A stretch of 64,000 nt of DNA from a virus: positions 1-64,000 of IMG/VR virus record IMGVR_UViG_3300020119_000126; one strand, given 5' to 3'. The position numbers were made by a program, and so were the translations under genes. The notes below the pieces were generated by a model. It worked only from the letters and a program-made list of their open reading frames with translations, ran no database searches and was not told the origin of the DNA. Below are positions 37,900 through 61,708 of the stretch, piece by piece. The first letter of the stretch is position 1. Each line of letters opens with the position of its first letter.

Positions 37900-38363
37900 A
37901 TAGCTCCTACCGTATTCATATCGACGAAGGCCAGATTGACGATTTGATATTGCAGCATTGGGTCAAGGTTACTGTCATAGCTCATGTCGTCGAAGAAGTA
38001 GATTTTTACAAATGAGGTGTGGCTGACCGTATCCTCACAGTGGTAGTTATCTACCAGAAACACCCGGCGCTTGAGCAAATGAATGAGCAGGTCAAAGGTC
38101 TCCGGGTCAACACGGACCTCATAGCGCATATCCTTGAAGATGATGGGTTCGCCTGATGATTTCAACACATGATCATGCGGCACGCCATTCAAAGCGCGTT
38201 CTAGACTTGACATGGTACTGAAGACTGGCAAGCGCTTTTGGACATGACCTATTCGATAAGGTGGCTCACCATAGACGCCGAAGCCAGTAGGACTGGTAGA
38301 CCATACACCAAGATGAAGATGATTGGTCAGGGTTTTAGGGGTATAGGAATATCCTGCTAACAT
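37896..38363 (-). CDS. Distal-tail-like protein
   Basis: Directly follows the tape measure gene via TAATG. Confidence 0.55.
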   Translation of the reverse strand: MLAGYSYTPKTLTNHLHLGVWSTSPTGFGVYGEPPYRIGHVQKRLPVFSTMSSLERALNGVPHDHVLKSSGEPIIFKDMRYEVRVDPETFDLLIHLLKRRVFLVDNYHCEDTVSHTSFVKIYFFDDMSYDSNLDPMLQYQIVNLAFVDMNTVGAI

Positions 38364-41300
38364 TACTGGCTCCATGTCTTGTCATACATATTGCTGATTG
38401 TGCTGATGGCCTTGCCCGGCTTGCTGTCTGGCACCATGATGATGGCATTAGCCCCCTCAGAATGAATAACCTTGAGCAAGTCACGAATTTCTTTGAGCAA
38501 TTCAGTCTGCTCAGGTGACATCACCACAGGCGCACCTGCCTGGGGAATGACATATTCGCCCTTATGGACTGTACCTGCGGCCTGGTATTTACTGCCTGAC
38601 CCGGTATAGCCACCCTCAGCAAAACCATGATAGCTTGTCGTCCCATCAGGATGGCTAACTGCGGTGATGCCCATCGGCTGCTGAGTAATGGTTGGGCTAT
38701 TATAAGTTGACTGCACATGCCACTGACCATCAGCCCCAGCCACAAGAGCACCACCACTAGGAACAACGGTTGCTCCACCTGTGCCAGCATAGCTACCACT
38801 ACCAGAAGGCATAGGGGCTGAAGCTAATTGTTGAAGTTTGGCTGCCACATTGCCAAGAGTCGTTATTGCCCCTTGTCCAGTCGTTGAGACATACTGAAGG
38901 GCAGCCGCATTCTGGCTATAAAGCGTATTGGCCGCTGTGATTGATCCGGCCAGATCATCGATAGCTCGTTTTTCAGCCTGATGGAAGGTCAGGCTTTGCT
39001 GAGCTTGAGTCAGTTCTTCCTGAGTAATCTGGCGGTTGAAACGGCGCTTCTCATCATCAAGCTGGCGTTCTTCATGGGCAAACTCGATTTGCTTCTGGTA
39101 GTTCTGCTGCGCCAGTTGGAAGTTCTGGACCTGGAACTGCTTGTCCTGTTGGAAATGCTGCTCATCACGCTTATATTGCTCGTCACCCCACTTAATCCTG
39201 GTCTTGGCCCGTTCTTCCTCGGTATCCAGATGGCCCATTTGCATGGAGTGTTGAACCACAGCCTCATCACGATGCCGCATTGCCACCCGGCGTTCACGAC
39301 CTCGCGAATAGCGCACGCTTTCATCAGCATCAATCATCGAGAAGCCAAAATTGACCTCGCTGACATTGCGCTGGAAAGCCATGTCTTGCAGGCCCCATTG
39401 CTGCTCAGACACCTGATGACTACGCTGAATCTGCATACTCTGCTGCTGGTAGTTCAGGTTATAGTTCATCTGCTGGCCTTGCAGCGCCATCTGCTGACCC
39501 TGGTACTGGAAGCCCCAGTCCTGCTGAGCACGCTGCTGAGCTACGCCACGATCCTCAAAGCCCCAGTTGGCCTGAGTCGAGCGTACCTGCCGATTAAGGT
39601 CAACCTGAGCCAGATTGAAGTCATATTCCCTGACCTTATATTGCTCGGCATTCATAGCCGTGGTCAGTTGGACCTGGTTCATGCTGCTCAGTTGGCTGCC
39701 ACTATAGAGGCTGTTGCCTGTGACCATACGCTGACTTGAAGCGATACCAGCCCGCTGTGAAGCAATGTCACCAGTAATCCGCTCGTCATAACCCGCCTGC
39801 ATCCCCAGTGAACCACCACGAGAGCCAGTCTGGACCAGGCGACGATTATTACCGACCATGCCACGGTCAGCCGCAATGGAGTTAGCGATAGGATCACCAC
39901 CTACTACAGCCATACCGAAGGCAAAGTCCTGACCACTGGCATTAGCAGCGAAGGAGTCGAAGGCTTGCATGGTGGCTGGATTAGCATTGCCATAGCGGGT
40001 ATAACCAGCGTAAGTGTTGAAAGCGCCCTGTGCCTGGCGACCAATCCGATTAGCCAGTGCGTAGTCGCCCGATAATTCGGCACGCCGAACTCCCTGGAAG
40101 GCGGCTGAAGACTGGTCATTGAAGCCCAGGCCAGCATTAGCCATACCGCCGAACATCTGTGCCCCTTGCAAGATGCCCTGTTGCTGCTCGGTGTTCAGAC
40201 CCATGAAGGTCTGTTCATTCGTTGAGGTCAGACCAGTCTGCCGGGCAAAGGCGTTATAGCTGCCTGCATAGGCAGTGGCTACTGTCAGGTTCTTGCCTGC
40301 GGTGCCTGTCATCCCATTCATCTGATTAATGGCATTGACCCGGTATTGGTACATTGCCGCATCATCTGAGGTACCCTTACCTGCCATCTGTGCCCTGGCC
40401 TGTGCTAACGCTTCAGGGTCAAGGCCGCGCATCTGCAAGGTGGCATAGCTCAAACCGATGTGATTGATGTCACCAGAGGATTGAGTCTGGTCAAAGGCAT
40501 TGATATTATTGAGGTAGTTCCAACCTTGCTGCATATTCCCAGTGCTCATCTCGCCTGCATTCAGGACGTAGGAAGCACCCATATTGCCAGCCGATGTGGT
40601 GTCCATACCTCGACCCAGTTGAAGCTGGTTAGTCATACCAGCCTTCATGCCTGTTCGACCTAGTAAGCGCTGGAATTGAGCCGGGTCAGAGGTTCTGACA
40701 CTGTTCAGGATATTGCCCCACAGGTCGCCCTTGGTAGAGTCGTTAAACTGTGACTGGTAGTCAATACCATACTGCGCCCAGGCACCAGACTGCTGGATAC
40801 CACCCAGGATGTCGCGCATCGAGCCGGGATTGGCAGTGAACTGGTTGAGCAGGTCAAGAGGATTAACTATCTGCTGGCCTGCGGCATATTGCTGCTGCTG
40901 AGTAGACTGCGCCTGGCCTGAGAAGAAACCCAGTTGTTGCTGCTGAGCGATAGATAGTCCTGTGACTGCTGTAGCGGCTGTCTGGTAAGCTTTAGAGCCA
41001 TAAGTGCTGGCTTGAGGACCGCCTTGAGCAAAAGCCACCCCACCCATGATGCCAGCCGCATCAAAGCCATACTGCTTACCTGCGGCAAACAGTTGGGCGA
41101 CATTGCCAAAGTTGGCATAATCATTGCCTGCGGCTCCCCCACGCGCTCCACGACCACGCAGTCTGTCTTCAGGAATGCCACCAAAGATAGCTTCAGCCTG
41201 TACCGTGCCAGCAAACTGAGCAGTGGCATCATATTGGCCGAGCAGTTCGCCGTGCTCTGAGATGTAGCCCTGCGTAATACGCTGCATCATCTCTGACCCG

Positions 41301-44300
41301 TACTTCGGTTTCCCATCAGGACCAATAGTGTAGAGGCCAGCATTCAGCGAACTACTCTGCATCCAGTTGCTTGCCAGACCAGTCTGACCACGTGAAGCAG
41401 ATTGAGCAGCAAAGATAGCCGCATAGTCAGCCTGTTTTTGGTTAGGGTCAGCTAAGCCAGCCAGAACAGTGCCCACATTCTCAATGGGATGTGACCAGGC
41501 ATCTGAACCAAGCAAATCCATCCGGGTGCTACGGTCTGTAGCTGCCGTATGGATCATGCCTGCCACACCCAGGGCAGCCGCCGTACCACCAGCCACTAAA
41601 CCAGCCGTAGGGCTTTTTGTGGCAAAACCCACACCCATGCCAGCAGCAAGAGCAGGGCCACCAATGGAAGCCAGTTCACCCAGGAAGCCGCCTGTGCCCA
41701 CTTGAGCTAGACTGCCAACCAATGGCTGCCAGGTACCTTCGAACATCTTGCCGATAGATAGCTGCTGAGCTAACTGCGCATTGGAGATTTGAGTCCGAGC
41801 ATCCTGGCGAGAGGTCGGCTGGTAGAGACTGCCCATACCAGCGGCTTGCAACTGCTGTATCTGACTAGTGTCAGTTTTGCCATAAAGTTCAGCCGCTTGC
41901 TGCAAGGGACCAACGGTCTCCTGCGCGATGTTGCGGAACATACGGTAGCCCATGACTGAACTATTGAGGGTACTAAGGGCGGAACCACCCACTTCCCAGG
42001 CCAGGCGACCAAGACTGCCGTCCTGACCATACCAACCATTTGCCCGCGCCTCTTTACGAGCGTTATAGCCTGACCTACCGCCAGCCATGAAGGGTGCCAG
42101 CTTCTCGCGGAAGTCAGGCTCCACATCCATATCGCCAAGGCCCTCGTACTTCTGCGCAAGCATCCGGTTATACAGACCACCACCACGGGCACCTGTGGCA
42201 TCAGCACGGCCAAAAAGTCGGTCTTCAGTTCGAGCAAGACCACCAATAGCTTCGCCGTTCTGCCAGACATTAGCATGACGGTCAAGAACGGCTTGGGCCA
42301 TCGCCCCACCTGCGCCGCCTTGCTTGACCATGTCTTCAGCATCGCGCAAAGTAGAGGTCAAGCTGGCATACATCTTGGCCGAGACATCGACGGACTTCAT
42401 CTGTTCTTCAGTCAGGCGGCCTGTACTGGTTGAGGCTTTACCAGCCGCGTCACTCAGGCCCAGGAAGGACTTGGCAATATCAGTAAGGTTCTTGTTGACC
42501 CCATCCAACGAGCCAACCTGAGCTTGAAGTGTTGCCACAGACTGGTCAGTGCCAAACTTACGCATCCCAGCCCGGTCATTCTCTGGAGTCTTGGCAACCC
42601 CAGCTTGCTGCTGGTTCTGCATGAACTGCTGCAAGAGAGCAGGATTGCCAGTCGCCTGACCATTAATGTCTGACCCGAACATCTGCTGGTAAGCACCATA
42701 AGCATCACCTGCATTGACATTAAGGCCAGTAATTGCCGCCGCCATAGGATCGTTATTGCCACCAGCCTGAGAAGCCACCGCCAGCCCTGCGGATTTAAAG
42801 TAACCACGGAGAGAGTTGGCAATAGCCTTAAAGCGTTTACTCTGGTCAGTGCCAAGCTTGCCTTGACCCATGGCTGAGGTCAGAGTTGCTAGTTCAGCCT
42901 GTAGTGTGGCATGACCCCCTTGTGGCGCGAGAATGCCAGCAGCTTTTAGTGCAGCATCGCGCTGACTCTCAGTCACCATCTTAGGTGGCTTATCTGATTT
43001 CTGACCGCTAGTAATTACCCCTTCAGCACGAGCCTCAAGACTGCCACCCTGGAACATTGCGTCAAGGTTTTCGAAGGGTGTATTGATAGAGTCAGCCGGA
43101 ACCGTCTGGCCTGACCCATAGTCATAGGCAGTACCAGTCTTCTCGTTAATATCATACTGACTAGGGTCATGCTTCAGATAACCATAGTCATCGAGAATTT
43201 TCTCAGCCCAGCCATAGGTACGCTCACCTGTAGGGTCATCGGCTGACCCCCATTGTTCAGTTAGTGCGCCACGCTCCACAGCCAGGTTACGTGCTTCACG
43301 GTACAGATTTTTGTAAGCACCGAAGTCATTCTTCTTGGTCTCAGCCATCCATTGGCTGAAACGCGTGGAGCCGTCATAGCCATACTTTTGTTCAGCAACT
43401 TCCTGAGCAACACCCCAGGCAGCCCGGTGAGCAGTACGCCAGACCTGACCTGCCATACCCAGGCCCTTACCAACAGTCTTGATATATTTGCCTGTGCGCT
43501 TTAGTTCCCTAGCTTCCTCAAGACTTAATTGTGACTGACCCGCCAGAGTAGCTGCACGAGCAAACCGACTGCTCATTGCTCCCTGAACTGAGTTAGGGTC
43601 ATCAGTGTTAATATCGCCCATTGCCAGACCGCCCAAAGCAATAGTTGTTTTGTTCAACATACTACGACCAGGCAGGTCAGGCGCTAAGCGTGTCCAGAAG
43701 GCATTGGCCTTACTATTAGGGAAGCCCGGACCACTGGGTGGCATTGCCATCGCTCCACCAGCAACAGGCGGCATTGGAGGCACTGGTGGCATATTGCCAG
43801 CACCCGGAGGCATAGCCGCCGCCGAGGTCTGTTGACCCAGGATATTCGCCATCACGTCAGCCGTGGTGGTATTCGTGTCAAAGCCTTGCTGGAATGCAGC
43901 CCAGTCCATGTCCATATTGTTGCCTGCTTCTATTCCGAGTTCCGCTTGCATCGCCGCGATTGCTTCTGGCGAAGCATTGTTGGGCATATTGGAGAGCATA
44001 GGGATAGCGGGATGGTCAGGAGTTGAGCCATCCCACACTGTTGATTTACCGTCATGACTTGTCGTGTAGAACGAAGCCGGACCTTGCGCAGCCGCGAACT
44101 GTTCCACAATGGGCTTGAGTTCAGAAGCCGCTTGAGCCAGCACCAGTGGCTCTGCCGTTGTCGTTTCTTTTCTATTCTTGGTAGCTGCATAAGCAGCCTG
44201 CATCGCTGAGATAACCTTCTTGCGACGGTCAGGGTTCTTACCTACCCAGGCTTTGAACTTCCGGCCATCAGTGAAGTGCTCAGCGAACTCAGTCTCACTG

Positions 44301-47300
44301 ACCCCGGCTCCCTTGAGATGATTGGCAAAAGTCTCAAAGTCCAAGAAGGCAGTGGTCGCTGAGGAAGCTCCGGTGCCCGCCATATATGCATTCAACTGCC
44401 GGGTGTGCCTGACCTGGTCTTCAGGGTCAGACATATCACTGAAGGTCAGGTTCCAAACCGAGTTATTCTCCTGGTCATACCAGGCTGCCTGACCATTGAC
44501 CCACACCCCGCCAATATTCAAGCCACCAGTGAACTTCTCACCAGAAGGATCAAAGTAAAGGGACTGTTTCTTGGAGCGGGCAATGCCATTCATCGTGCCA
44601 GGCTTCAAGCCAAGCACCTGCGCGGCAATCTCATGACCAAAGCCTGATGGGTCAGACTGCCAGATAGGTGCGCCTGACTTAGATTTGCCCATCTTCTCTG
44701 ACTGGAAGGGCACACGCAGTACGGTACGACCTACGGCACGAGCCAGTGAGACACCGCCCATTTCACCAGCACCAAGTAGAGTCTCCATGGCTGCTTCCGC
44801 AGTCAGGGCATAAGCTGGCACATGGAAGCGGGCATAAGACTCCTCAGAGTAAGGAGCGCGAGGCATCATCTGACCCCGGTCTACATTCATTCGTCCCGGT
44901 TGAGTAGGTGGAGCACCCATCCCAGCATTGAAACTAGCTGAGAATTCAGCCCAGTCACCCGGATCAGGTGGCAGGTCAGCCGCCATAACCATAGGTTCCA
45001 CAGGAGCCTTAGTCTGCATTCCTGTTAATGCCGTGGCAAAGGCGGTTGGAAATGCCTGACCTTTTGACCATGGCTGCTCAAAGAAAGTTGTGGCTGCGGT
45101 CTTGATTTGATCTATTTGCCGAGCAAAGACTGCTGAAAGTTCTTGAGCACTCTCATAAAATAAATCGACATGTTCTTGAGACAGTTGGATAGGGTCAGTA
45201 ATTAGCTGAGTCGTCAAAGCCCAGGTCATGATGTCACTACGATGAGACAAGGCTCGCGACTCAATGCCCGACACAGCCATTTCAGCCGCAACACCAGCTA
45301 GAAGCCGCTTGGCCTGAGCCTTGCGGTCACTGGTCACGGTAACAATAGCCGCACCTTTACGACTTAGCTCAGCATCACGCTCAGAACCAATGCTAATGCC
45401 CTCTAGACTGCCTGGGGTCAGGAATTCGGCTACTAGAGCATGACCTATCTCATGAACGCCTGTGCTTAGTGCGCCAAGGATTGGATGCTCTGGACGAACT
45501 GGAAGCAATTCATGAAGCTTGTCTCGGAAGTCGAGATTTTTATATGATTCTTCGATTTGCTCCCGATAGCGCTGGCGAGTGGCATCACTCAAGCGGTTGG
45601 GGTTAAGCGCCGCCGCTCTAATATTAGAGAAGTCAATTACATCTACTGGCGCAGTCGGTTCGGCAACATTCGGCATGCCGAAATCTTGCGGAGCCTTGCC
45701 AAAGTCCCAGGCTACACCCTTTGAGGTTGGTTTGCCTACCTTATTACGTAGGTCAACTGCCCGCTGAGCATATTTTGCCAATGGATCATCAAAGGTTGAC
45801 CCCTTGAGATGGACCAGTTGGGCAGCCCGCTGAATGGCTTCATTGCCTGCTTCACCAGTCGGGAAGAACTCCTTATTGTGGTAAAGTGCGTCCATCAGGT
45901 CAGTGGCAGACATCTCACCTGACCCATAGAGTCCACCAGTGCCAACGGCCAGTTCTAGCCGAGCCGCTTGAGCAGCAATCTCCCGGTAGCGGTCAGCCCG
46001 TTGTTGAGAACCAAAGCGCTCCTTGGTGAAGAAGGTCGCCACATCATAGGGTAGATACTCGCGTTGTTTCTCCTTGGTAGTGAAGTTCTGGCCGACTTCC
46101 TTAGTAATCTGGTTGAGGACCATCTTGCCTGTGAAGTACGAGGCAAAGGAATTACCCAGGGCAACCCCTGACCCTAGTAACTGGCTGATCTTGCCAGAGG
46201 CTGAGCTATCACCATTACGGAAATCTTCCACATGGCGAGTAACTTCAATTAAGGTCTTCTCATAACTATTTTGGTCAACCGGAACCATGAGCCGCGCAAT
46301 GTCCTGCGCTGTCATGTTCTCCTTTTTATTGACCAGGAAAGCTTGAATAAGTTTATTGGAGACACTACGGTCACTACTCAGGTTGGTATAGTCAACCTTA
46401 CCCTTCAGATCAGGAAAGAAAGTGCCAAGACTCTCATTAGACAGCTTGAGTAGTTCCGCACCAGCCGGGTCAAGTGGTTTGGTGTCGAGCACCGTCTGAT
46501 ACTGGTAGGCACGAAAGTTCTCAGAGGCAGTTAGCGCCGCTTCATTATTGCCAAGGGTCTTATACCAGGCCCTCATGCCAAAGGTCATATTGAATATCTG
46601 ACCCATCGCAGCTTTGGCTGTGGCAGTATCCTGCGTACCCTGACCAAGCACATTGATTGCGGCTGTGGCTGAGTTCTGCTTATTGGCAATGGTATTGGCG
46701 ATACCAGAGATGGTCAGGCCGCCATAGTCCGTGTTCTGAATTTCAAGCCAGGTTCCGGCCTGACCCGCTGGATGATTAGGATCAAGAGAGGCAGCCAAAA
46801 TTTCGGCATGAGGCGTAGGCCGCTGGATACTGACCAGCTTGCCATCACGCAGCGTAACCATAGCTGGACCAATGGTTGTGGTATCTTTGTCGAAGTCACC
46901 GCCCTGCTTGAACTGGTCAAGAGGTGAAATCATCAACTGGTCTTCGTTGAATTCCATGTCGCTCAGACCAAGCCGACGACTTAAGCCCTCACTCATAATT
47001 GAGGTATAGCTGGCCTGCTTCAAGGTCATATGAGGTGACCTGAAGATAGGCGCAACGGGCAGAATGCCTGCATCCAAAGCACCGACCAGACCTACCTGAT
47101 GCACTGCCCCCAGGAACTCATGTTCCTTGGCTTTGATAAGGTTAGTAAGGTCTTGCTCAGACAGGTCATGACCAAGTTCTTTCAGGTTGGCCTTGATGTA
47201 CTCCCGGTAGCGATGACTGCTCATTCCAGCCAGGCCAGCCGTCATCATCGGGTCACCACCCACTGGCAAATGGGCTGCCGCATCACCACGACGACCAATG

Positions 47301-50300
47301 ACTGAGTCGCGAGTTGCCTCTCGACTAGCCAGCTTGGAGACTGCCTCAACTGCACCACGAGCTATCTTGTTATAGTCAAGACCACCACTCAAGCCGCGCT
47401 TGCGAGAGCGCAAGGCCATGAGTACACTTTCGTTCAGTGCCCCAATAATTGAGGTCGCTTCACCGCTGGCCCGGTCATCATCCGTATCCCTGACCATGCC
47501 CATAATGGACTCAGGGGTAGGCATGAAGAAACCACGTCGCTGGCCTTCCAGAGTAGTTGAGATAACTGAGAACTTGTTCGAGCCACCAAGAATGTGTTCC
47601 TGGTAAGCCTGAAGCTGAAGCTCAAGCTTATTGGTCGCACCAGAAGCCTTGATTTCCTCAAAGCGATTGCCAAAAGCTTCCAGTGAGGAATAAGGCGCAT
47701 TACCAGGTACGACATACTGGTCAGCACCCATACCTTCCACGCCAGCGCCTTCATTGATAGCTGCTGCATAGAGCACATCAGCCTTGCGCTGAGCACCAGC
47801 CGCACCAAAGCGACTCAAGCGGTCATGCACCGCAGGGTTATCTGCCACAGAACGGGTCAGAGCCAATAAGTCCTGAGTGTTAACCGTACCACCCTGACCT
47901 GCAATCTTGGCTTCAGGCCGAGTCAGCAAAGGTAGCCGAGTTACGGCTTGCCGAATTGTTATCTGTGCCTGGTTGTTCTGACCATACTCGACGTTCTGCA
48001 CCAACCCTGATGGCAACAATGAGCCAAAGTAATTCTGCTGCATGGCCTGATGCTGCTTATTCAGCATCTCACCTGGCGCAAAGAGCGGTAGCATGTCCTG
48101 GCTGACCGTGCGAGTGTGAAGTTCTACACGAGTACGATTGGCAATAAGGTCTTCGAAAGCCCCACGGAAGACTTCACGGTTTCTGCCAGACCACTGGACT
48201 GACCCTTCGTAATCCTGCATGAGACTGCGGTCCCAGGCAGGACGGGACAGCATTTGACTGACCTCAGCATTGCTTAATTGCTCATTGCCACGCAGATACT
48301 TCTCGCGTATGCCCTTGTCAAACTGAGCATACATCAGGGTCATGTATTCTTCAGGCCGCGAGGTCGCTAGAGCATTAAGCGCACTAAAGGCAAAAGCTTG
48401 CGGGTCATTGATCTTGTTATAGACCAGGTCAGCGTTATATTGCTCTCGTGCTGAGCGATTCCAGGTGGCAAACGCCTTGGTGCCAGACATGTCCGTGTCG
48501 AAAGGCGCACCACGCTCGACATACCCTACCTGGCTATTGAGAGTGTCAATGCGATTGATATAAGCTTCGTCAAAGCCTCGACCAAGGGTAATCTCCTTGG
48601 GTGTACCCGGATTGAGTGTGGTGTCACGACCTGTGCGCAGCCAGTTGCCAGCCATCTTATTAAGCTGGTCAAGGGTTTCGCCCTCAATCCCCGCATAGAG
48701 GTCCAGACTGGCTCGACGTTGCACACCAAGGCGAGGGTCAACGACCACACCACCATCGGTGTCCAGAGAGCCATAATGGATAACAGCCGCATCCATCAAG
48801 TAACCTGTCAGACCCTGGTTACCATAAGATGTGGTAATGCGTGTACTGCTAGTGAGCGGCAGTTCCTGACCCGTCTGGCGGTCATAGAACTCAGCCATGG
48901 GACGACCACCAAGCTGCTGTGACTTGAGACCCTTGGCCGGATCAGACTTCTTGGTCAGGTCAGACTTGATACCCTTGATGTCATACATGGTCATGGGCTG
49001 ACCAAACTCATTCAGTTCAATGGTGCCACCAGGAGCATCGAAGACTGACTTGATGGTCTGCATGTCGGAATTGCGGGTATAGCCAATGTTCCCGGCAATA
49101 GTCCGAGGTGAGGCTACGGCTGAATAGCGTTCATTGGTGTCAGGATTGCGGGCATAGAGCCACTTGCGGGCATAGTCTGGTACCTGATAACGCGGGTCTT
49201 CCTTGATCTGCTTCCGCACTTCATTGAGGTCAAGATAATTAGGCACACCCCCTGCCCCAAAGTTCACATCATGGGCAATGCGAGTATCGACGACATATTT
49301 ATTCTGTGTCGAAGCAGCAGCCGGAGGCAGGTACTCCTCAAAGTTAATGCGCGAGACCACATCATCAGAACTTCTCGACCTGTGAGAAGCATAGGTCATA
49401 CGCTGCTTCAGGTCATTGATAGGTTTCTTGGTGAAGGTATCGCGACCCTGCTCATCAACCTCAATCTGTGCCACATGGCCCGGCAAGCCACCACCCAACA
49501 GGATATTCTGCACTGAAGCCCGCTGGTAAGCCATGTTACCTGCTAGAGCGCCTTTGACCTCACGGAAAGAATTCGGGTCAGTGATATTGCCGCCTGCGTC
49601 CATCTCAGCCGTAGAGTAGCCAACCACCTGATTGCCACGAGCATCCAGAGTCATAACAGGCAGCATGGCATAGCCATTGGCATACAACTGCCGCCGCTCT
49701 TGCACCTGACCCTGGTCATCCATGTACTCACCAGTCTTGAGTACTGCCACATTCTGTGTCCAGCGCTGGTTGCCCTGAGCATCGAAGTAACTTACCGCCA
49801 CATGAGGCTGATTGCCTACGAAGGTAATGGCATCATCAATCTTGACCTGACCGACTCCTGGCCGTTTATTCAGGTTATTGATTAATGGTTCTAGCACTTC
49901 AGTGCGGGTTTTCTTCAGACGGTCAATCTGTTCCTGCTGCCAGCCGACAGTGCGGCGGGCATTCTCTAGACTATAGGGGCCATTGGCGTGCAGGTAAGAC
50001 AATTGACTACGTAGGGATACGTAGGCAGCCTGGCGTTCTGCTTCGGGCAGAGTGTCATTGTGCATTCGACTGAGGACAGGATTGACGACATCAGGGTGAA
50101 GATAGCCAGCTTGAATACCCTTCTTGACGGCAAGGGCAGTTTGGCTGGCTAGTTTACTGCGGATATGAGAACGGACACCGGGTTCAGGAATGATCGAAGG
50201 ATCACGTTTGATGTGCTCAAACGCTTCTTGTCCATACTGGTTAATAATACCAGAATGCGCGAGTTGCCTAGCTTGTTCGCCACTGACCCCGATACCCTCA

Positions 50301-50356
50301 AGTTCATTGACGAGGCGGTCAGCATAGCGGTCATGCAGTTCCGGGGTTAGGTCCAT
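38363..50356 (-). CDS. 3997-aa tape-measure polyprotein with putative two-barrel RNA polymerase, M41-like protease and PD-(D/E)xK-like domains; palindrome copies 12 and 13 at 40076-40089 and 45669-45682
   Basis: Follows tail tube and chaperone genes; C-terminal FAEGGYTG...GTVHKGEYVIP; RSP (aa 1106), GGDFDKD (aa 1152-1158), HEIGH (aa 1635). Confidence 0.85.
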   Translation of the reverse strand: MDLTPELHDRYADRLVNELEGIGVSGEQARQLAHSGIINQYGQEAFEHIKRDPSIIPEPGVRSHIRSKLASQTALAVKKGIQAGYLHPDVVNPVLSRMHNDTLPEAERQAAYVSLRSQLSYLHANGPYSLENARRTVGWQQEQIDRLKKTRTEVLEPLINNLNKRPGVGQVKIDDAITFVGNQPHVAVSYFDAQGNQRWTQNVAVLKTGEYMDDQGQVQERRQLYANGYAMLPVMTLDARGNQVVGYSTAEMDAGGNITDPNSFREVKGALAGNMAYQRASVQNILLGGGLPGHVAQIEVDEQGRDTFTKKPINDLKQRMTYASHRSRSSDDVVSRINFEEYLPPAAASTQNKYVVDTRIAHDVNFGAGGVPNYLDLNEVRKQIKEDPRYQVPDYARKWLYARNPDTNERYSAVASPRTIAGNIGYTRNSDMQTIKSVFDAPGGTIELNEFGQPMTMYDIKGIKSDLTKKSDPAKGLKSQQLGGRPMAEFYDRQTGQELPLTSSTRITTSYGNQGLTGYLMDAAVIHYGSLDTDGGVVVDPRLGVQRRASLDLYAGIEGETLDQLNKMAGNWLRTGRDTTLNPGTPKEITLGRGFDEAYINRIDTLNSQVGYVERGAPFDTDMSGTKAFATWNRSAREQYNADLVYNKINDPQAFAFSALNALATSRPEEYMTLMYAQFDKGIREKYLRGNEQLSNAEVSQMLSRPAWDRSLMQDYEGSVQWSGRNREVFRGAFEDLIANRTRVELHTRTVSQDMLPLFAPGEMLNKQHQAMQQNYFGSLLPSGLVQNVEYGQNNQAQITIRQAVTRLPLLTRPEAKIAGQGGTVNTQDLLALTRSVADNPAVHDRLSRFGAAGAQRKADVLYAAAINEGAGVEGMGADQYVVPGNAPYSSLEAFGNRFEEIKASGATNKLELQLQAYQEHILGGSNKFSVISTTLEGQRRGFFMPTPESIMGMVRDTDDDRASGEATSIIGALNESVLMALRSRKRGLSGGLDYNKIARGAVEAVSKLASREATRDSVIGRRGDAAAHLPVGGDPMMTAGLAGMSSHRYREYIKANLKELGHDLSEQDLTNLIKAKEHEFLGAVHQVGLVGALDAGILPVAPIFRSPHMTLKQASYTSIMSEGLSRRLGLSDMEFNEDQLMISPLDQFKQGGDFDKDTTTIGPAMVTLRDGKLVSIQRPTPHAEILAASLDPNHPAGQAGTWLEIQNTDYGGLTISGIANTIANKQNSATAAINVLGQGTQDTATAKAAMGQIFNMTFGMRAWYKTLGNNEAALTASENFRAYQYQTVLDTKPLDPAGAELLKLSNESLGTFFPDLKGKVDYTNLSSDRSVSNKLIQAFLVNKKENMTAQDIARLMVPVDQNSYEKTLIEVTRHVEDFRNGDSSASGKISQLLGSGVALGNSFASYFTGKMVLNQITKEVGQNFTTKEKQREYLPYDVATFFTKERFGSQQRADRYREIAAQAARLELAVGTGGLYGSGEMSATDLMDALYHNKEFFPTGEAGNEAIQRAAQLVHLKGSTFDDPLAKYAQRAVDLRNKVGKPTSKGVAWDFGKAPQDFGMPNVAEPTAPVDVIDFSNIRAAALNPNRLSDATRQRYREQIEESYKNLDFRDKLHELLPVRPEHPILGALSTGVHEIGHALVAEFLTPGSLEGISIGSERDAELSRKGAAIVTVTSDRKAQAKRLLAGVAAEMAVSGIESRALSHRSDIMTWALTTQLITDPIQLSQEHVDLFYESAQELSAVFARQIDQIKTAATTFFEQPWSKGQAFPTAFATALTGMQTKAPVEPMVMAADLPPDPGDWAEFSASFNAGMGAPPTQPGRMNVDRGQMMPRAPYSEESYARFHVPAYALTAEAAMETLLGAGEMGGVSLARAVGRTVLRVPFQSEKMGKSKSGAPIWQSDPSGFGHEIAAQVLGLKPGTMNGIARSKKQSLYFDPSGEKFTGGLNIGGVWVNGQAAWYDQENNSVWNLTFSDMSDPEDQVRHTRQLNAYMAGTGASSATTAFLDFETFANHLKGAGVSETEFAEHFTDGRKFKAWVGKNPDRRKKVISAMQAAYAATKNRKETTTAEPLVLAQAASELKPIVEQFAAAQGPASFYTTSHDGKSTVWDGSTPDHPAIPMLSNMPNNASPEAIAAMQAELGIEAGNNMDMDWAAFQQGFDTNTTTADVMANILGQQTSAAAMPPGAGNMPPVPPMPPVAGGAMAMPPSGPGFPNSKANAFWTRLAPDLPGRSMLNKTTIALGGLAMGDINTDDPNSVQGAMSSRFARAATLAGQSQLSLEEARELKRTGKYIKTVGKGLGMAGQVWRTAHRAAWGVAQEVAEQKYGYDGSTRFSQWMAETKKNDFGAYKNLYREARNLAVERGALTEQWGSADDPTGERTYGWAEKILDDYGYLKHDPSQYDINEKTGTAYDYGSGQTVPADSINTPFENLDAMFQGGSLEARAEGVITSGQKSDKPPKMVTESQRDAALKAAGILAPQGGHATLQAELATLTSAMGQGKLGTDQSKRFKAIANSLRGYFKSAGLAVASQAGGNNDPMAAAITGLNVNAGDAYGAYQQMFGSDINGQATGNPALLQQFMQNQQQAGVAKTPENDRAGMRKFGTDQSVATLQAQVGSLDGVNKNLTDIAKSFLGLSDAAGKASTSTGRLTEEQMKSVDVSAKMYASLTSTLRDAEDMVKQGGAGGAMAQAVLDRHANVWQNGEAIGGLARTEDRLFGRADATGARGGGLYNRMLAQKYEGLGDMDVEPDFREKLAPFMAGGRSGYNARKEARANGWYGQDGSLGRLAWEVGGSALSTLNSSVMGYRMFRNIAQETVGPLQQAAELYGKTDTSQIQQLQAAGMGSLYQPTSRQDARTQISNAQLAQQLSIGKMFEGTWQPLVGSLAQVGTGGFLGELASIGGPALAAGMGVGFATKSPTAGLVAGGTAAALGVAGMIHTAATDRSTRMDLLGSDAWSHPIENVGTVLAGLADPNQKQADYAAIFAAQSASRGQTGLASNWMQSSSLNAGLYTIGPDGKPKYGSEMMQRITQGYISEHGELLGQYDATAQFAGTVQAEAIFGGIPEDRLRGRGARGGAAGNDYANFGNVAQLFAAGKQYGFDAAGIMGGVAFAQGGPQASTYGSKAYQTAATAVTGLSIAQQQQLGFFSGQAQSTQQQQYAAGQQIVNPLDLLNQFTANPGSMRDILGGIQQSGAWAQYGIDYQSQFNDSTKGDLWGNILNSVRTSDPAQFQRLLGRTGMKAGMTNQLQLGRGMDTTSAGNMGASYVLNAGEMSTGNMQQGWNYLNNINAFDQTQSSGDINHIGLSYATLQMRGLDPEALAQARAQMAGKGTSDDAAMYQYRVNAINQMNGMTGTAGKNLTVATAYAGSYNAFARQTGLTSTNEQTFMGLNTEQQQGILQGAQMFGGMANAGLGFNDQSSAAFQGVRRAELSGDYALANRIGRQAQGAFNTYAGYTRYGNANPATMQAFDSFAANASGQDFAFGMAVVGGDPIANSIAADRGMVGNNRRLVQTGSRGGSLGMQAGYDERITGDIASQRAGIASSQRMVTGNSLYSGSQLSSMNQVQLTTAMNAEQYKVREYDFNLAQVDLNRQVRSTQANWGFEDRGVAQQRAQQDWGFQYQGQQMALQGQQMNYNLNYQQQSMQIQRSHQVSEQQWGLQDMAFQRNVSEVNFGFSMIDADESVRYSRGRERRVAMRHRDEAVVQHSMQMGHLDTEEERAKTRIKWGDEQYKRDEQHFQQDKQFQVQNFQLAQQNYQKQIEFAHEERQLDDEKRRFNRQITQEELTQAQQSLTFHQAEKRAIDDLAGSITAANTLYSQNAAALQYVSTTGQGAITTLGNVAAKLQQLASAPMPSGSGSYAGTGGATVVPSGGALVAGADGQWHVQSTYNSPTITQQPMGITAVSHPDGTTSYHGFAEGGYTGSGSKYQAAGTVHKGEYVIPQAGAPVVMSPEQTELLKEIRDLLKVIHSEGANAIIMVPDSKPGKAISTISNMYDKTWSQ

Positions 50357-51100
50357 TCGCCTGCTGCTTCAAGAATGCTTCAAATTTACGTTCGCCGGAT
50401 AGTGCCGCCTCTAGCATGACGCACAGACAATACGGTTGGTCGTAATATCCGCCTTCAACTAAGAGGGGAAGCCCACCAGTGGGGCCAGCAAACGTTCTGA
50501 GCTTCCTGAGCATGAGATATTCTTCAGGGATGGGTAGTTCTTCCGCCAACATGAGTTGACGCCCCGCATCATCAGTTTTGGCTAAATCGACCTGAAACGA
50601 GAGGTGAGCGTAGACCTCTCGTTCAATACGATACTGCTCCTGGTCGATTAGCCCTTCCAGTTTGGGTTCCACTGAGGATTCACCTGTAGAACCGCATCGT
50701 GGATAGCTTCTGCCCATTCTTCGGGCAATAAGCCCCAGGCATCATTGAATTCTGCCTCAGACATGGATAAAACCATCTTGCCACCATCTTTGCGATAGCG
50801 GAATAGACTGTGGGTTGCCGCACCATCAGAGTCAGGGGGAGCCTGAATATTTGAGCCAGCCAGGGTCAGGTAGACCTCAAGGCGCTTTTGCTCCTCAATG
50901 CTCCAACGTTGCTTGACCTCAACTTCCTGAGTGCCAGAACGGAAAATACGACTGGCATCAGCCGTTAGTTCTGCCCGACGCTCGACCTCGCGCTGAGTAG
51001 CCTGACGGACTTCAACATAAGTATCCTGATCCGGGTCAGACTCAGTATCAAGGGTGAGGAAGATTTTCTTCTGGATGGGCAGCTTTAAAACAGCAGGCAT
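50331..51100 (-). CDS. Tail assembly chaperone (G form 50648-51100; GT form by -1 frameshift to 50331)
   Basis: Slippery heptamer C CCA AAC at 50660-50666 just before the stop; -1 frame open (KLEGLIDQ...). Confidence 0.8.
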
Positions 51101-51565: not shown

Positions 51566-53374
51566 TTACGGCTCCGAAGGAACGGTGTAACCCGTTGTGT
51601 TACCGTTGATGAGAATGAACTCACAGTAACCCGCCGCATCATAGAGAACCGTACCAATGATTTCCAGCATGACGATGTCACCCGCCCGTAGACGGATAGG
51701 CAGCGGTTGCCAGAAGACCTGGTTGGCTCGGATACGCAAGCTATAGGGTGTCGTGGTGTTCGTGATGCTGAAGGGACTCTCTACTTCAAGGTCAACCGCA
51801 TAGTTCGAGCCGCTGGTTGCGGTGATGAATGGCGTTGGTGTCCAGGCAGTCGCCTTGAGTTGGTTACCAAATAGATAGTTGGCGAGATTGGCGTCCTTCC
51901 ACTTATAGCTGAAACGCAGGGTCAAGGCACGAGTACGGGTCACCACATCATCCATGAAGTAGCTACCCACGACCATTTCCTCGCGGGGTGTGGTTGTGAC
52001 GTTACTCATCTCGACAATAACCTGAGTGACAGGCAGTGGATTAGGCAGCCCGGCCACAGTAGGCAGACTGAACGTACCCTTGCAGGCCAGAGGGATACTG
52101 CGGAAGTCTTCAAAGCTATTGCCTGCCCACACTTCGGGATGATTGTCGTATTCAGGAACACGACCCATCAACTGCATCATCATTTCAACCGGAGCCGTGG
52201 CTGCTACAGTCGTGCGCAACAGATTGACCTTGTTGTCAAAGCCAATCACGCCCTGACCATAGACATTGTCACGCCCAGGGATCATCTTACGAGCCGCAAT
52301 CCAGGGCATGTTCGCTTCGTTGGTCTGGAAGGTAAAGACATGCTGACCAACACCCGTTGAAGGATTAGTGGTCGTTGCCTTGCCAAGAGCAGCCAGGAGC
52401 AAGACACCGATACTGTCCTGCAAACGCGGCATGATCTGAGCGCCACCTGCCACAGCCACGCCTGACTTATAAGCGCCCGTTGGCGTCATGGTACCACCCA
52501 CTTCTAGTGGGATGGTTTCCTGCATCTGGCTTTCGCCATAGTCTACTTCGCGAGTACGCAGTCTCCACCAGGTCAACTGATTGCGGTTAAAGTCCTTGGC
52601 CGCATAACCACCCAGGATACCCAGGGTCACAACTGCTGTCGCATCGACGACAGTTTCATATAGGGGTACCGAGTTGGCAGCCACCCCTGTGGTCACAGTG
52701 CGGAAGCTGATGATGGTGCCTTCATAGGCAATACTGGTTACGGCTGAGTTAGAAGCCAGACGTGTAGCAATCGTCGCAGCCAAACCAAGGATAGTGCTCT
52801 GGCCTGTCGCTGTGATGTCGATGTTATTGCCAGTGTTGCTGCTGGTTGAGAAGGTATAGGTTGTTGAACCAACGACCAGGGTTTCAGTGTTGAGTGGCAT
52901 AGCAGCAATCGCTACGCGGCCAAAGCCTGCACGCAGGTCACCACCATTCAAGCCACCTGTGAAGGTTGAACCTGAAAGGGTAATAACCGAGCTTGACTTC
53001 GCCAGAGTGAAGGCATTACCAGCCTGACCTGGTATCCAGGCTTCGAAGAACAGAGTCGTCACACTACCAGAAGCCGTGACATGGATTGCCGGGCGAGTAG
53101 CCGTATAATAGCCACCATTGCCTGTACCCTTCATGGCTGACACGGCATTAGCCAAGGTGTCCGTCAGAAGTGTACCAATGGCAATATCATTGGCCGCAGC
53201 CGGGGTTGTCTTGAAACGATAAGCGATGCCATTGACGGTCAGTGTGTCGGAATCGGCTGGATTGGCTGAGAACGTGGCATAAGCCTGAGCCGCAATAGCT
53301 TCGGGCTGACCATCCTCATACTTGCCATATTGGAGAGCAACAGCGAATTCGCCTTGCTGAGTAGTAATCGTCAT
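51566..53374 (-). CDS. Major tail (tube) protein with N-terminal inserted repeats
   Basis: LLLAALG...HVFT tube-like core; duplicated ~115-aa module. Confidence 0.72.
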   Translation of the reverse strand: MTITTQQGEFAVALQYGKYEDGQPEAIAAQAYATFSANPADSDTLTVNGIAYRFKTTPAAANDIAIGTLLTDTLANAVSAMKGTGNGGYYTATRPAIHVTASGSVTTLFFEAWIPGQAGNAFTLAKSSSVITLSGSTFTGGLNGGDLRAGFGRVAIAAMPLNTETLVVGSTTYTFSTSSNTGNNIDITATGQSTILGLAATIATRLASNSAVTSIAYEGTIISFRTVTTGVAANSVPLYETVVDATAVVTLGILGGYAAKDFNRNQLTWWRLRTREVDYGESQMQETIPLEVGGTMTPTGAYKSGVAVAGGAQIMPRLQDSIGVLLLAALGKATTTNPSTGVGQHVFTFQTNEANMPWIAARKMIPGRDNVYGQGVIGFDNKVNLLRTTVAATAPVEMMMQLMGRVPEYDNHPEVWAGNSFEDFRSIPLACKGTFSLPTVAGLPNPLPVTQVIVEMSNVTTTPREEMVVGSYFMDDVVTRTRALTLRFSYKWKDANLANYLFGNQLKATAWTPTPFITATSGSNYAVDLEVESPFSITNTTTPYSLRIRANQVFWQPLPIRLRAGDIVMLEIIGTVLYDAAGYCEFILINGNTTGYTVPSEP

Positions 53375-55249: not shown

Positions 55250-56659
55250 CTAGCCTTGCAGCATCGCGCCGACCTGACGGAAGGACGCGCTGAGGAATAG
55301 GGTTTCCAGAACGTTCGGGTTATAGTTGCAATAGCCCTGGTAGCTATCCCACGAAAAGCGCCAGATGCTGTCGAAGTCATCAATGGGACCAGGCGCGTGC
55401 AAACGCGGCGGGCGACCAACACCCATGACGATGCCATCTGACCCACCCACGAAAATGCAGGAGTGGATGTGCAGACCCTTGGTCACATAAGCGTAAACAC
55501 CAGCACCCAGGTTGGTGCTCATGTCTACCATGATCGGCTGGTCAAAGCTCAACCGCTTGTTGGTCGTGTCGATGTCCACGATACGACGATTGGTCAACTT
55601 ACCATCGCGGAAGTCCACACCGTTCGACACGCCAAAATCGCTGGTGCGCTGAACATGGATAGACACGATGTCATTGATGGCGAAGTTGGTCATGGTCGTA
55701 CCACTGTCAAGCTGGACATAGTGCGTAGCACCAGGTTGTCCAACCTTCCAGGTTGAATCGACCATCTTGGTCGGATCATTCGGGTCAGGTGAGCCGTCAC
55801 CAGCCGCAATTGCTGCGGAGACACTGGCCTGCACCGTGATAGTGCCTGCATTGAACAGAGTCGCCTTGGGTGTCTCGACGAAACGCACGTTACGATAGGT
55901 GCCGACTTCATAGTTCAACAGACGGCTCGGATCAGCATAGGCCATGGGGGTTAGCCAATCCTTGGGGTCTGTCTGCTGCTGAAGGTCGAAGATCACGCCG
56001 GGTGAGGTGATGCAGACGATGGTACCGACTGTACCATTCAGGTTCTGCGCATAGGGCACACCACGATACTTCATGCCCAGGTGAATTTCGTTCAACTGGC
56101 TGGTGGAGATTTTGTCGTCACTGGTCAAGCCAGCAAAGCTGCTTGCGCCAGAGGCGTAGAGTTTGAAAGGAACACTGAGCATAGCATTGCGGGCCAGCAT
56201 GTCCTGCACGTCAATCATGTGCTGACCGAGCTTGTCCTGAACGATGCGGCGAATAGCCGACATATTGCCGCCCTGGTACTGCCAGTAGGTCACCAGTTCG
56301 TCGTAGACATGGTAGCTAACCTTGCCACCATAACGCTCGAACGTGATTTCCTGACCCTTGCTGTCGAAATGTGCTGAGGGCGCACTCATATCGCGCAGGC
56401 CAATGCGGTTGAAGTCGGGGTGAATGTCATACAGGCTGGTGACCGACATCGTCTTGGCGGCGCGGTTTGCCAGGTTCTGCTGGAATGAGATATACGGTGA
56501 GAAGACTGAGCGCCAGCGGTAAACATCACGCAAGACCGGATCGTAGAACATACGCTCCTTGGTCGTGATGCCTGCCCAGGGATGGTTGGCGTACAGACTC
56601 GTGTCGAATGTGGGAGAGAAGTCAGACCGTTGGTACGGTGAACCGATGATGTCAGCCAT
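55250..56659 (-). CDS. Major capsid protein (N4-gp56-like)
   Basis: YEVGTYRNVRFVET, DDFDSIWRFSW; GAGGT RBS; synteny. Confidence 0.82.
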   Translation of the reverse strand: MADIIGSPYQRSDFSPTFDTSLYANHPWAGITTKERMFYDPVLRDVYRWRSVFSPYISFQQNLANRAAKTMSVTSLYDIHPDFNRIGLRDMSAPSAHFDSKGQEITFERYGGKVSYHVYDELVTYWQYQGGNMSAIRRIVQDKLGQHMIDVQDMLARNAMLSVPFKLYASGASSFAGLTSDDKISTSQLNEIHLGMKYRGVPYAQNLNGTVGTIVCITSPGVIFDLQQQTDPKDWLTPMAYADPSRLLNYEVGTYRNVRFVETPKATLFNAGTITVQASVSAAIAAGDGSPDPNDPTKMVDSTWKVGQPGATHYVQLDSGTTMTNFAINDIVSIHVQRTSDFGVSNGVDFRDGKLTNRRIVDIDTTNKRLSFDQPIMVDMSTNLGAGVYAYVTKGLHIHSCIFVGGSDGIVMGVGRPPRLHAPGPIDDFDSIWRFSWDSYQGYCNYNPNVLETLFLSASFRQVGAMLQG

Positions 56660-57468: not shown

Positions 57469-57666
57469 TTATATGGACTTCTGAACTTTCCTGATCAGTT
57501 CGATGTCAGCCAGGTTCAGCTTGACCTTTTCTTCCCAAAAGGCCAGTTCAACCTCAACCCTGTCCTTGTCGATGTAGCGAATGAAGTAGCCCTGCGGGAA
57601 GGACTGCAAGTCTCCCCGCAATGCTTCCCGGCGTATCTTGACCGTGTCACCGTACTGAAAGGTCAT
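57469..57666 (-). CDS. Small KOW/SH3-fold-like protein
   Basis: FQYGDTVKI...RVEVEL...LNLADIELI. Confidence 0.45.
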   Translation of the reverse strand: MTFQYGDTVKIRREALRGDLQSFPQGYFIRYIDKDRVEVELAFWEEKVKLNLADIELIRKVQKSI

Positions 57667-59303
57667 TACTGCTCACCGGGTTCCTTCATGATGGTCGAGA
57701 TAGCCTGCGTTTTGGTGTGGACCTGGACTTTGCCCTGGGATGGAGCACTGGTCGTTTCCTTGGTTTCGCTTGAGCCTGCCAACTGCTGCAAGAACTGCAA
57801 CCACTTCATGACATCTTCCTCAGTGCGCTGCGCGTCTTCGGTCAGGTTTAGCAGCTTATTGCCATCGCGGGGCGTAATCATCTGGCTCTGGATGCCAATC
57901 GCCACTTCATTCAGGTCAGCTTCACGATCACGCGGGATCATGGGTGACCAATCAACTGCCCAATCGACTTCTTCCAGATGTTTCGTGGTGATGCCAGCAA
58001 TACCCTTCTGTGCAGCCAACTGTGCTATAGCCTTGGCAATCAGGATCAGACCAGTGGTCCAGTATGTCCTGACTGCTCTAACCTTAGCCGTGAGGGGGTG
58101 CATACGGAAAGCCAGGGTCAAGGCTGAACGCTGGCTACCTTCGTCTTCGCCTTCAGCCACACCAGGGATAAACGTATCTCGACCAAACTGCTGGCGCAGG
58201 GTTTCGACATGGTTGACCATCGCCTCATTAAGTGGAGGTGGGTCAATAGCAAACACGTCTGGTTCTTCACCACCTGGCGGTGTCTGACCCAAATTGATGG
58301 CTGGCCTGGTTCCACCAATGTCCATAGTCTTGGGAGCCGTATTAACATTACGGATATAGGTGTCACGATGGCTCACTTCTTCAATCACGTCAGAAATGTC
58401 AGCCTGCCGAGCATTCATTTCCTTGGCAAGTTCAACCACGTCATCTAGCAGACTCAAGCCATAAAAGCTGCCAGCCCGTTCGCGAGGGATATAGAAGAAA
58501 GGCACCTTACCAAAGGGATTATCCATGTCATCAAACAGGAACTCGGTACTGCCAATCTTATACTTCAGCGGCTTATCACCTAGCTTGATGGTGACCTTCT
58601 TTTCGGTCCAATGCTCGATGAACAAAGGATCAGCCGCGCCATCAGCAAGGTCATAGCCAAAACGAAGATGAGCTTCGCGACCTGACATTCGGTAAATAAC
58701 CCAGGCTTCAAGCAAATACTCTGGTCGCCCAGTGTCCCATACAGGTAGAAAAAAATCAGGAAGGATATGTTCCAGCCGGATGCCATATTCCAGCTTAAGG
58801 TCTTCAGGATTCCAGCCCAGGCGAAAGACGATACCGCCCAGGAACGACTGAAGTAGCCCGGCTTCTTGCTGTAAGGAGCGCCCATTATTATCAGTCCACA
58901 CCCGGTTGATGAAGTCTTCAAGCTCATCGGCTCGTGTTCTGGCCGCATCATCCACCTTGTCTTTGCCTGGTTTATTGCGTGGCGTAATGCGGATAGGAGC
59001 CAGTGGACCTGGCGTATCATTGACCTCGCCAAATAGAACATAGCTATGCTCCATGCACACTTTCTTCAGGTAGTTAATCTGAAGGGGATAACGCAGCGCC
59101 GGATTGCCATGATCATCCACGCCTTCAGGCATAGTCTCATTGAGCCATTGCCCAGTAAAGCCCCACCAATACTTCAGGTAGCGGTCTGCCTGATAGGACC
59201 AGCGGGCAAAGGGAAAGATAGCGGGGAACTCATCCTGGGTAAAAGGAACAGTTGTGCCCGTACCTATGCGGCGGTCTTCGATGTCTTGAAAATATGAAGG
59301 CAT
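57666..59303 (-). CDS. Portal protein
   Basis: 545 aa after terminase; NYLK, NPFGKVPF, SALTL, WSPMIPRD. Confidence 0.85.
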   Translation of the reverse strand: MPSYFQDIEDRRIGTGTTVPFTQDEFPAIFPFARWSYQADRYLKYWWGFTGQWLNETMPEGVDDHGNPALRYPLQINYLKKVCMEHSYVLFGEVNDTPGPLAPIRITPRNKPGKDKVDDAARTRADELEDFINRVWTDNNGRSLQQEAGLLQSFLGGIVFRLGWNPEDLKLEYGIRLEHILPDFFLPVWDTGRPEYLLEAWVIYRMSGREAHLRFGYDLADGAADPLFIEHWTEKKVTIKLGDKPLKYKIGSTEFLFDDMDNPFGKVPFFYIPRERAGSFYGLSLLDDVVELAKEMNARQADISDVIEEVSHRDTYIRNVNTAPKTMDIGGTRPAINLGQTPPGGEEPDVFAIDPPPLNEAMVNHVETLRQQFGRDTFIPGVAEGEDEGSQRSALTLAFRMHPLTAKVRAVRTYWTTGLILIAKAIAQLAAQKGIAGITTKHLEEVDWAVDWSPMIPRDREADLNEVAIGIQSQMITPRDGNKLLNLTEDAQRTEEDVMKWLQFLQQLAGSSETKETTSAPSQGKVQVHTKTQAISTIMKEPGEQ

Positions 59304-61499: not shown

Positions 61500-61708
61500 C
61501 GAACAATGCCACCCAATGAGGTCGCATTCCACAACGAATTGTCATCAGTGTCGAGCTTGATGAAGAAAATGGTGCTATCTGAGTCCAACTTCATCCACTG
61601 CGACCCGTTGGTCATATGGACTATGGCAGGCTTATCACCTTGCAGCCATGCCTGGAAGATAGCTAAATAGCCCTGGTCAGTCGGGCCGAGCTTGATTGGT
61701 TCAGTCAT
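61496..61708 (-). CDS. Hypothetical protein
   Basis: Coupled ORF. Confidence 0.55.
   Translation of the reverse strand: MTEPIKLGPTDQGYLAIFQAWLQGDKPAIVHMTNGSQWMKLDSDSTIFFIKLDTDDNSLWNATSLGGIVR

Follow-up and report, generated by a model that had tools for sequence, protein, structure and literature searches.

A candidate two-barrel RNA polymerase in the N-terminal part of a giant phage tape-measure protein

Tape measures with a known or possible built-in polymerase

In the literature we searched, a two-barrel RNA polymerase fused to a tape-measure protein has been published solely for gp96 of the Thermus phage P23-45 (Chaban et al., 2024; PMC10770324); the supplementary alignments of 23 polymerase families and the viral-genome survey of that paper could already list the family described below. 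According to that paper, gp96 is a tape measure of 5002 residues, the N-terminal part of which is an active RNA polymerase with the sequence DFDGD at positions 779-783, followed by metallopeptidase and membrane domains. Structurally, gp96 is flat and has no clamp, its connector being short and disordered (residues 613-679); it transcribes the pre-early genes from AT-rich promoters, after which a second polymerase, gp64, takes over. The paper also reports that the rest of gp96 is without detectable similarity to known RNA polymerases and that many families share just the region around DxDxD; N4-related phages are mentioned in its discussion. Here we describe a tape-measure gene (38363..50356, minus strand, a single open frame) in a viral DNA stretch of 64,000 nucleotides, positions 1 to 64,000 of the IMG/VR record IMGVR_UViG_3300020119_000126, which we call the window. 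An earlier, sequence-only reading of the window had proposed that the 3997-residue product, P0001, carries a virion RNA polymerase, and had described gp96 correctly as the precedent. Because a motif pair lies at the conservation maximum of the protein, the motifs stand in the expected order, the architecture has a precedent and a search for feature neighbours in the ESM Atlas gave a lead, we think that the first ~1550 residues of P0001 are probably a single-chain RNA polymerase of the two-barrel (double-psi beta-barrel) type that has diverged very far. With similar, somewhat better than even confidence, we take them to represent a second lineage of tape-measure-fused virion RNA polymerase, unrelated in sequence to gp96.

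Proteins of the gp96 type are found in the Thermus phages P23-45, P74-26, G20c, TSP4 and P23-45_stolb1-3, and when GenBank phages were searched with tblastn all of the matching records (10 of 10) were Thermus phages. Thus, by the literature and by this search, the published tape-measure-fused, first-acting RNA polymerase belongs to one phage group only. Two further kinds of single-chain two-barrel polymerase bear on the comparison, namely the virion RNA polymerase of phi14:2 (2180 residues; gp66 of the paper, gp077 of KC821624), which is packaged in the virions of crAss-like phages, and the eukaryotic RNA-dependent RNA polymerases of the QDE-1 type (PF05183). Unlike P0001, neither is fused to a tape measure. 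Coliphage N4 offers an analogy only, in that a giant virion protein is injected and transcribes the early genes. The N4 enzyme is a T7-like, single-subunit polymerase of unrelated fold, and N4 is a podovirus.

P0001 is a tape measure by both C-terminal homology and gene position. The C-terminal 599 residues alone match tape-measure PHROGs (phrog_24, E 4.3e-13; phrog_1506, E 1.6e-8; phrog_339, E 1.5e-4; and phrog_21845); a scan of the whole 3997-residue protein gave no PHROG match and, in Pfam, just a weak match to Peptidase_M50B. The region homologous to tape-measure families (aa 3704-3940; 38537..39247; this and all other features of the gene are on the minus strand) includes GGYTG (aa 3915-3919; 38600-38614) and VHKGEYV (aa 3930-3936; 38549-38569), the two C-terminal motifs from which, together with position, the gene had first been called a tape measure. 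Residues 3912-3966 were also matched by three IMG/VR loci, and at one of these PHROGs identified the scanned open reading frame as a tape measure. The order of the genes fits as well. Terminase (59694-61532), portal (57666-59303) and major head protein (55250-56659), all on the minus strand, lie upstream, and a tail assembly chaperone pair (50331..51100, minus strand), made of overlapping open reading frames of 150 and 128 residues (51100-50648 and 50717-50331), comes immediately before. A canonical -1 slippery heptamer, C_CCA_AAC, is found at 50660-50666 on the minus strand, near the end of the 150-residue frame; the shift leads into the frame of 128 residues, which overlaps the start of the tape measure.

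Relatives of P0001 are few. A word-indexed search found two, P0002 (76% identity) and P0003 (40%), and an exhaustive phmmer search of 1.84 billion cluster representatives, with aa 400-1599 as the query, returned three proteins at E <= 0.001, P0001 itself, P0003 and P0004 (37%). The family as used here has these four members (P0001-P0004; 36-78% identity). The four clusters amount to five sequences, whose contigs measure 20.8 to 92 kb, and the lineage is known from just these five among ~15 billion proteins. Alignment of the polymerase region gave no relatives in IMG/VR, in JGI metagenome contigs or in 185,579 species genomes, and neither the polymerase region nor the C-terminal end of the tape measure nor the terminase found a match among GenBank phages. 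All four tape-measure proteins (3426-4139 residues) are devoid of cysteine.

The layout of P0001 resembles that of gp96. Both are giant tape measures (3997 and 5002 residues) with the polymerase, or candidate polymerase, N-terminal; both have R-x-P followed by G-x-DFD-x-D, and both are without detectable similarity to standard polymerase families. P0001 begins with a conserved region of unknown role (aa 1-395; 49172..50356), in which DDVVS and FVGNQPH are invariant and for which no Pfam or PHROG match was found. A variable linker (~aa 365-400) parts it from the candidate two-barrel RNA polymerase region (aa 396-1556; 45689..49171), a block conserved in P0003 and P0004. Behind this block lies HEIGH (aa 1635-1639; 45440..45454), an HExxH motif that may belong to a zinc-peptidase module; the Peptidase_M50B match there has an E value of 0.0013, under the curated cut-off, and no PDB match was found for the module. 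It is present in P0001 and P0002 only, the sequence at that place being deleted or diverged in P0003 and P0004. A hydrophobic segment rich in Gly and Ala (aa 2889-2935; 41552..41692), conserved across all four members, and the tape-measure C-terminus complete the series. The differences from gp96 are equally clear. The family shows no sequence or profile similarity to gp96; the aspartate loop is DFDKD at position 1154 rather than DFDGD at 779; ~420 mostly helical residues, instead of a short connector, lie between the candidate barrels; gp96 has no HExxH by regular-expression search; and no gp64-like second polymerase was found here.

Polymerase-like motifs and their conservation

The motifs on which the sequence-only reading was built are where it had placed them. 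FRSPH occupies aa 1105-1109 (47030-47044), with the R1106 codon at 47039-47041, and DFDKD occupies aa 1154-1158 (46883-46897), 48 residues from R1106 to D1154 as claimed; the span first given for the second motif, 46883-46903, covers GGDFDKD (aa 1152-1158). Both elements fall within what we define as the candidate catalytic barrel (DPBB-A, aa 1085-1185; 46802..47104), in which R1106-S-P corresponds to 47033-47041 and G1153-DFDKD-1158 to 46883-46900. DxDxD occurs only twice in the 3997 residues. A HAD-type DxDxT reading of DKDTT was rejected by eye, the hydrophobic strand before the motif being absent.

The upstream motifs were likewise found as described, with TDGGVVVD at aa 533-540 (D534; 48737-48760) and SGTKAF at aa 624-629 (K627; 48470-48487). 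Together with NADLVYNKIND (48404-48436) they define a candidate beta-like barrel (DPBB-B, aa 480-666; 48359..48919), whose alignment lacks significance and is ambiguous. The connector between the two candidate barrels (aa 667-1084; 47105..48358) accounts for the ~420 residues mentioned above. The beta-like motifs come first in the protein and the beta'-like ones after, which is the expected order, here in one chain where E. coli has the two subunits RpoB (beta) and RpoC (beta'). By eye, YGSLDTDGGVVVD can be set beside NGYNFEDSILVSE of beta, and GTKAF...ADLVYNK beside GNKGV...VDIVLNP, so that the pattern of the candidate barrel resembles NFEDSILV / GNKGV / VDIVLNP; on the beta' side, IFRSPH...GGDFDKD resembles NRAPTLH...NADFDGD. 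The likeness to RpoB and RpoC is one seen by eye and in marginal shuffle tests, and the corresponding Pfam models, PF00562 and PF00623, do not match. The upstream motifs also echo LKGTVIVDP and WKGVIVTHP, which are common to gp96 and gp64, and P0001 shares with the phi14:2 enzyme a residue other than Gly at loop position 4 (DFDID in phi14:2).

The sequence-only reading had made the conservation of DFDKD in homologues a point on which it should stand or fall, and DFDKD is invariant in all four family members. Also invariant in the four are R-S/T-P (R-T-P in P0004), the Gly before DFDKD, DGG, and G-x-KAF with its lysine K627. Across the four lineages, every other invariant run of the entire protein is shorter than GDFDKD. 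Invariant columns make up 18.7% of aa 1-1556 and 10.5% of the part behind, and of the ten 15-residue windows with the highest conservation, nine fall within aa 615-1486. Among the top windows are those of GTKAF, NADLVYNKIND, the strand before R-S-P, DFDKD and MGQIFNMTFGMRAWY (aa 1251-1265; 46562..46606), the last being the most conserved window of the protein. Thus, the peaks of conservation coincide with the proposed active-site elements. In low-confidence models, MGQIFNMTFGMRAWY lies in a predicted long helix ~95 residues past DFDKD, and this helix may correspond to the bridge helix of polymerases. Around the motifs, the same kind of model places a strand, the RSP loop, two strands, a short helix, the DFDKD loop, a beta hairpin and a helix, an order that we take to be that of the catalytic barrel.

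As references for the motif pair we fetched E. coli beta', P23-45 gp96, P23-45 gp64 and the phi14:2 virion polymerase. The pattern R.P.{28,60}D[FY]D.D has one match in each of the four references, at the catalytic loop, and recurs at the homologous position of all four family members. Shuffles of P0001 produced it in 52 of 20,000 cases and a stricter form, preceded by [GAN][GAV], in 6 of 20,000; D[FY]DxD alone arose in 762 of 20,000. Since the gap range was fixed after P0001 had been seen, these figures are upper-quality estimates and not a blind test. We also scored family hidden Markov models (HMMs) against real segments of the reference proteins, comparing each segment with 1000 of its own shuffles. 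The shuffles scored at least as well as the real segment in 21 of 1000 cases for beta' 405-505, in 15 of 1000 for gp96 720-820 and in 30 of 1000 for beta 1050-1120. At the profile level, hhalign of the sub-profile for aa 1085-1320 with gp96-family residues 700-1060 gave one collinear alignment (P 0.02), in which VA..FRsPhM is paired with VAFTFRNPVMGH and GDFDKD with VDFDGD.

Feature neighbours in the ESM Atlas point the same way. When aa 1035-1325 were used, the first-ranked of the named clusters was one of RNA-dependent RNA polymerases (PF05183 in 25% of members; score 0.90, 163 shared features), and the third-ranked was again PF05183 (14%). When the query was the whole of aa 396-1556, unnamed viral clusters took the first three ranks, and a phage cluster in which 76% of members carry PF05183 came at rank 13 with a score of 0.87. 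Such neighbours are leads, which by the tool's own calibration fall under its evidence level. The family that they name is, out of thousands, the one that had been predicted beforehand, and we treat it as a lead only.

Evidence on the other side and rival readings

A substantial set of results weighs against a polymerase. No significant polymerase match was obtained with Pfam or PHROGs, either for the whole protein or for 8-9 pieces of it (E <= 5 for the pieces), and a genome-wide search with PF05183, PF00623 and PF00562 was negative at E <= 10, whereas 14 of 14 control genomes are positive for PF00623 and PF00562. Searches of PDB sequences with phmmer and of profiles with hmmsearch gave no polymerase. 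The profile comparisons that the sequence-only reading had called for were not significant: full-length hhalign with gp96 1-1200 gave P 0.18, though GDFDKD lands on VDFDGD, hhalign with gp64 gave P 0.16, and the family profile against a three-row gp96-family profile gave P 0.073, elsewhere in the protein. In the shuffle test, chance did at least as well as the real segment in 114 of 1000 cases for gp64 268-368, in 258 of 1000 for the catalytic segment of phi14:2 (1301-1405), in 326 of 1000 for barrel B of gp96 (520-600) and in 389 of 1000 for barrel B of gp64 (120-200), and beta 790-850 received no score from the family HMM. Five of the eight segments were therefore unremarkable, and the three that were marginally good depend for the most part on DFDxD itself. 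The motifs, too, depart from the four references. R and D are 48 residues apart, as opposed to 35-39; five or six polar residues separate the third Asp from the next hydrophobic strand, unlike in any of the four; and loop position 4 is Lys, where the references have Gly or Ile. For the partner barrel, HMMER aligned TLGRGFDEAYI, and not GTKAF, with GRHGNKGVI of beta; since the alignment with beta 1050-1120 used TLGRGFDEAYI, the register of this barrel is unsettled. Nor is there an evident second conserved lysine, and the partner-barrel assignment, which the sequence-only reading had itself called the weaker one, is ambiguous. No barrels were seen in either AlphaFold2 model, both of which are too low in confidence to judge (mean predicted local distance difference test score, pLDDT, 40.8 in the model of aa 396-1556 and 44.1 in that of aa 1010-1330, from a shallow alignment). 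Quick looks also turned up neither a second, non-virion polymerase candidate nor a repeated promoter-like motif. Among open reading frames of at least 300 residues, DxDxD occurs in just two others (351 and 412 residues), neither with D[FY]DxD, and none of 10 open reading frames of the 64-90 kb arm has a Pfam polymerase match, a kind of search that gp64-like proteins escape. The look for promoters was crude, and we give it no weight: the 12-mers with at least five exact copies all belonged to the 14-bp palindrome described below, and among 10-mers between genes only YTGACCTG surfaced, a word found genome-wide.

Other searches were silent. A word-indexed profile search found zero proteins of 613-2032 residues at E <= 10, BLASTP against the N-terminal region of gp96 gave a best E of 0.55, and candidate barrel B had no significant match to barrel B of gp96 or gp64. 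In the models, pLDDT values of 70-85 were limited to ~aa 875-935, in the connector, where matches were merely to generic helical bundles, and fold searches on the low-confidence models, with Foldseek and VIA, gave nothing meaningful. Prediction of a complex of aa 476-680, aa 1076-1310 and Mg scored 0.00, with the partner fold uncertain, and carries no weight either way. The alignment being too shallow, we regard the fold tests as uninformative. Nor is weak homology disqualifying, because the rest of gp96, too, is reported to lack detectable similarity to known RNA polymerases and many families to share just the surroundings of DxDxD. What stands of the sequence-only reading is that the gene is a tape measure and that the motifs are present, in the right order and at the peaks of conservation; the HMM, profile and PDB searches lent it no significant match.

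The same silence could be explained if the N-terminal third were a conserved ejection or 'pilot' domain with no polymerase function, involved in envelope penetration, channel formation or tail assembly, and if its likeness to polymerase motifs were a chance product of a long, Asp-rich protein. The lack of support from profile, HMM and fold searches is what such a domain would predict, as are the frequency of D[FY]DxD alone in shuffles, the spacing and post-loop residues unlike those of the references and the ambiguous alignment of barrel B. However, the full R-x-P...DFDxD is rare by chance and falls exactly at the top conserved run in four lineages, barrel-B-like motifs that are also invariant lie upstream in the expected order, and the Atlas neighbours of the DFDKD segment are RNA-dependent RNA polymerase clusters, a family predicted beforehand. 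We therefore consider a pilot domain unlikely, if still to be taken seriously.

Tape measures commonly embed lytic domains, and domains of the MltA and RlpA types are double-psi barrels with conserved Asp. The conserved block could accordingly hold some other metal-dependent enzyme with an acidic loop, be it a cell-wall-degrading double-psi-barrel domain (RlpA/MltA-like), a nucleotidyltransferase or a nuclease, and the low-confidence AlphaFold2 models do not speak against a non-polymerase barrel. But none of nine pieces had a Pfam or PHROG match to a lytic, nuclease or transferase family, and the ~1150 conserved residues far exceed the size of a lytic domain. The combination of R-x-P, G-DFD-x-D and an upstream Lys motif is, in addition, a polymerase signature, and the Atlas leads favour RNA-dependent RNA polymerases. 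An enzyme of this kind appears improbable to us. Least probable of all is a two-barrel homologue with another job, one that synthesises a primer or a non-coding RNA as the DNA enters, or that persists as an inactivated structural relic. In its favour, quick looks found neither a partner non-virion polymerase nor a repeated promoter-like motif, and the Lys in the fourth position of the loop and the altered post-loop residues are unprecedented among the fetched references. Against it, R-x-P and all three Asp are unchanged in members that are 36-78% identical, which points to a working site, and the sole studied fusion transcribes pre-early genes (Chaban et al.; PMC10770324).

If the N-terminal part of P0001 is the polymerase that we favour, the beta-like barrel (~aa 480-666) would contribute D534-G-G, the invariant K627 in G-x-KAF and NxDhVhNKIND, and would be joined by the helical connector to the beta'-like catalytic barrel (~aa 1085-1185), with R1106-S-P and a metal loop formed by D1154-F-D1156-K-D1158. 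By analogy with gp96, the enzyme, being a section of the tape measure, would be carried in the tail, would be ejected into the cell before the DNA or together with it and would there transcribe the first phage genes, with no need for the host enzyme. Possibly, the HExxH module behind it, in those members that have it, cuts the enzyme free after ejection. A fuller proposal, that this is an independently diverged second lineage outside the Thermus phages, marked by a Lys-containing DFDKD loop, by an inter-barrel module that may be a clamp of the kind gp96 lacks and, in some members, by an HExxH protease that could release the enzyme, seems to us evenly poised.

Were this polymerase confirmed, the fusion of a first-acting RNA polymerase to a tape measure would have arisen or persisted more widely than in the Thermus phages, in a phage without GenBank relatives. 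It would mean that a large folded enzyme, or an unfolded chain, can regularly pass through a siphovirus tail, and giant tape measures would be worth screening for hidden enzymes. DFDKD would be a new variant of the catalytic loop in the two-barrel polymerase superfamily; in the literature, no paper retrieved for DFDKD was about polymerases, judged by its title. The family would also provide a test case for how a tape-measure-fused polymerase gets released.

The surrounding genome

The virus record is a single sequence of 90,156 bp, rated 100% complete, with a G+C content of ~51%; the window is its first 64 kb. A direct repeat of exactly 127 bp is found at its termini (genome 1-127 and 90030-90156). 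As 127 bp is a common maximum k-mer of assemblers, the repeat may mark a circular assembly, not physical ends. The structural block runs on the minus strand from ~62.8 kb down to 23.8 kb. Within it, in the tail-tube position, lies an open reading frame of 602 residues (51566-53374, minus strand), unusually large for a tube protein, whose sole PHROG match is phrog_28344 (function unknown; E 1.9e-5).

Outside the window, in the arm for replication and nucleotide metabolism, an open reading frame of 819 residues (genome 67492-69951, plus strand) has no Pfam match and no DxDxD, and no DNA polymerase was recognised among the open reading frames scanned. Also outside the window, a frame of 418 residues (genome 72969-74225, plus strand) contains a PARP catalytic (ADP-ribosyltransferase) domain (E 2.2e-23). 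ADP-ribosyltransferases of phage T4 modify the host RNA polymerase, and the 418-residue protein could modify host proteins.

Two short sequences recur in the genome. The octamer YTGACC[TG]G has 98 copies (both strands), mostly intragenic, against ~11 expected at uniform composition; codon pairs, GAC-CTG for example, may account for the excess, or the octamer may be a real site. The 14-bp palindrome TTCGGYNNGCCGAA, the core of which is the only 12-mer with at least five exact copies in the genome, is present in 22 copies, 15 of them in the window (from 385 to 59677, and on to genome position 85081). One copy, at 45669, lies inside the tape-measure gene at ~aa 1562, where the conservation of the polymerase-like region stops.

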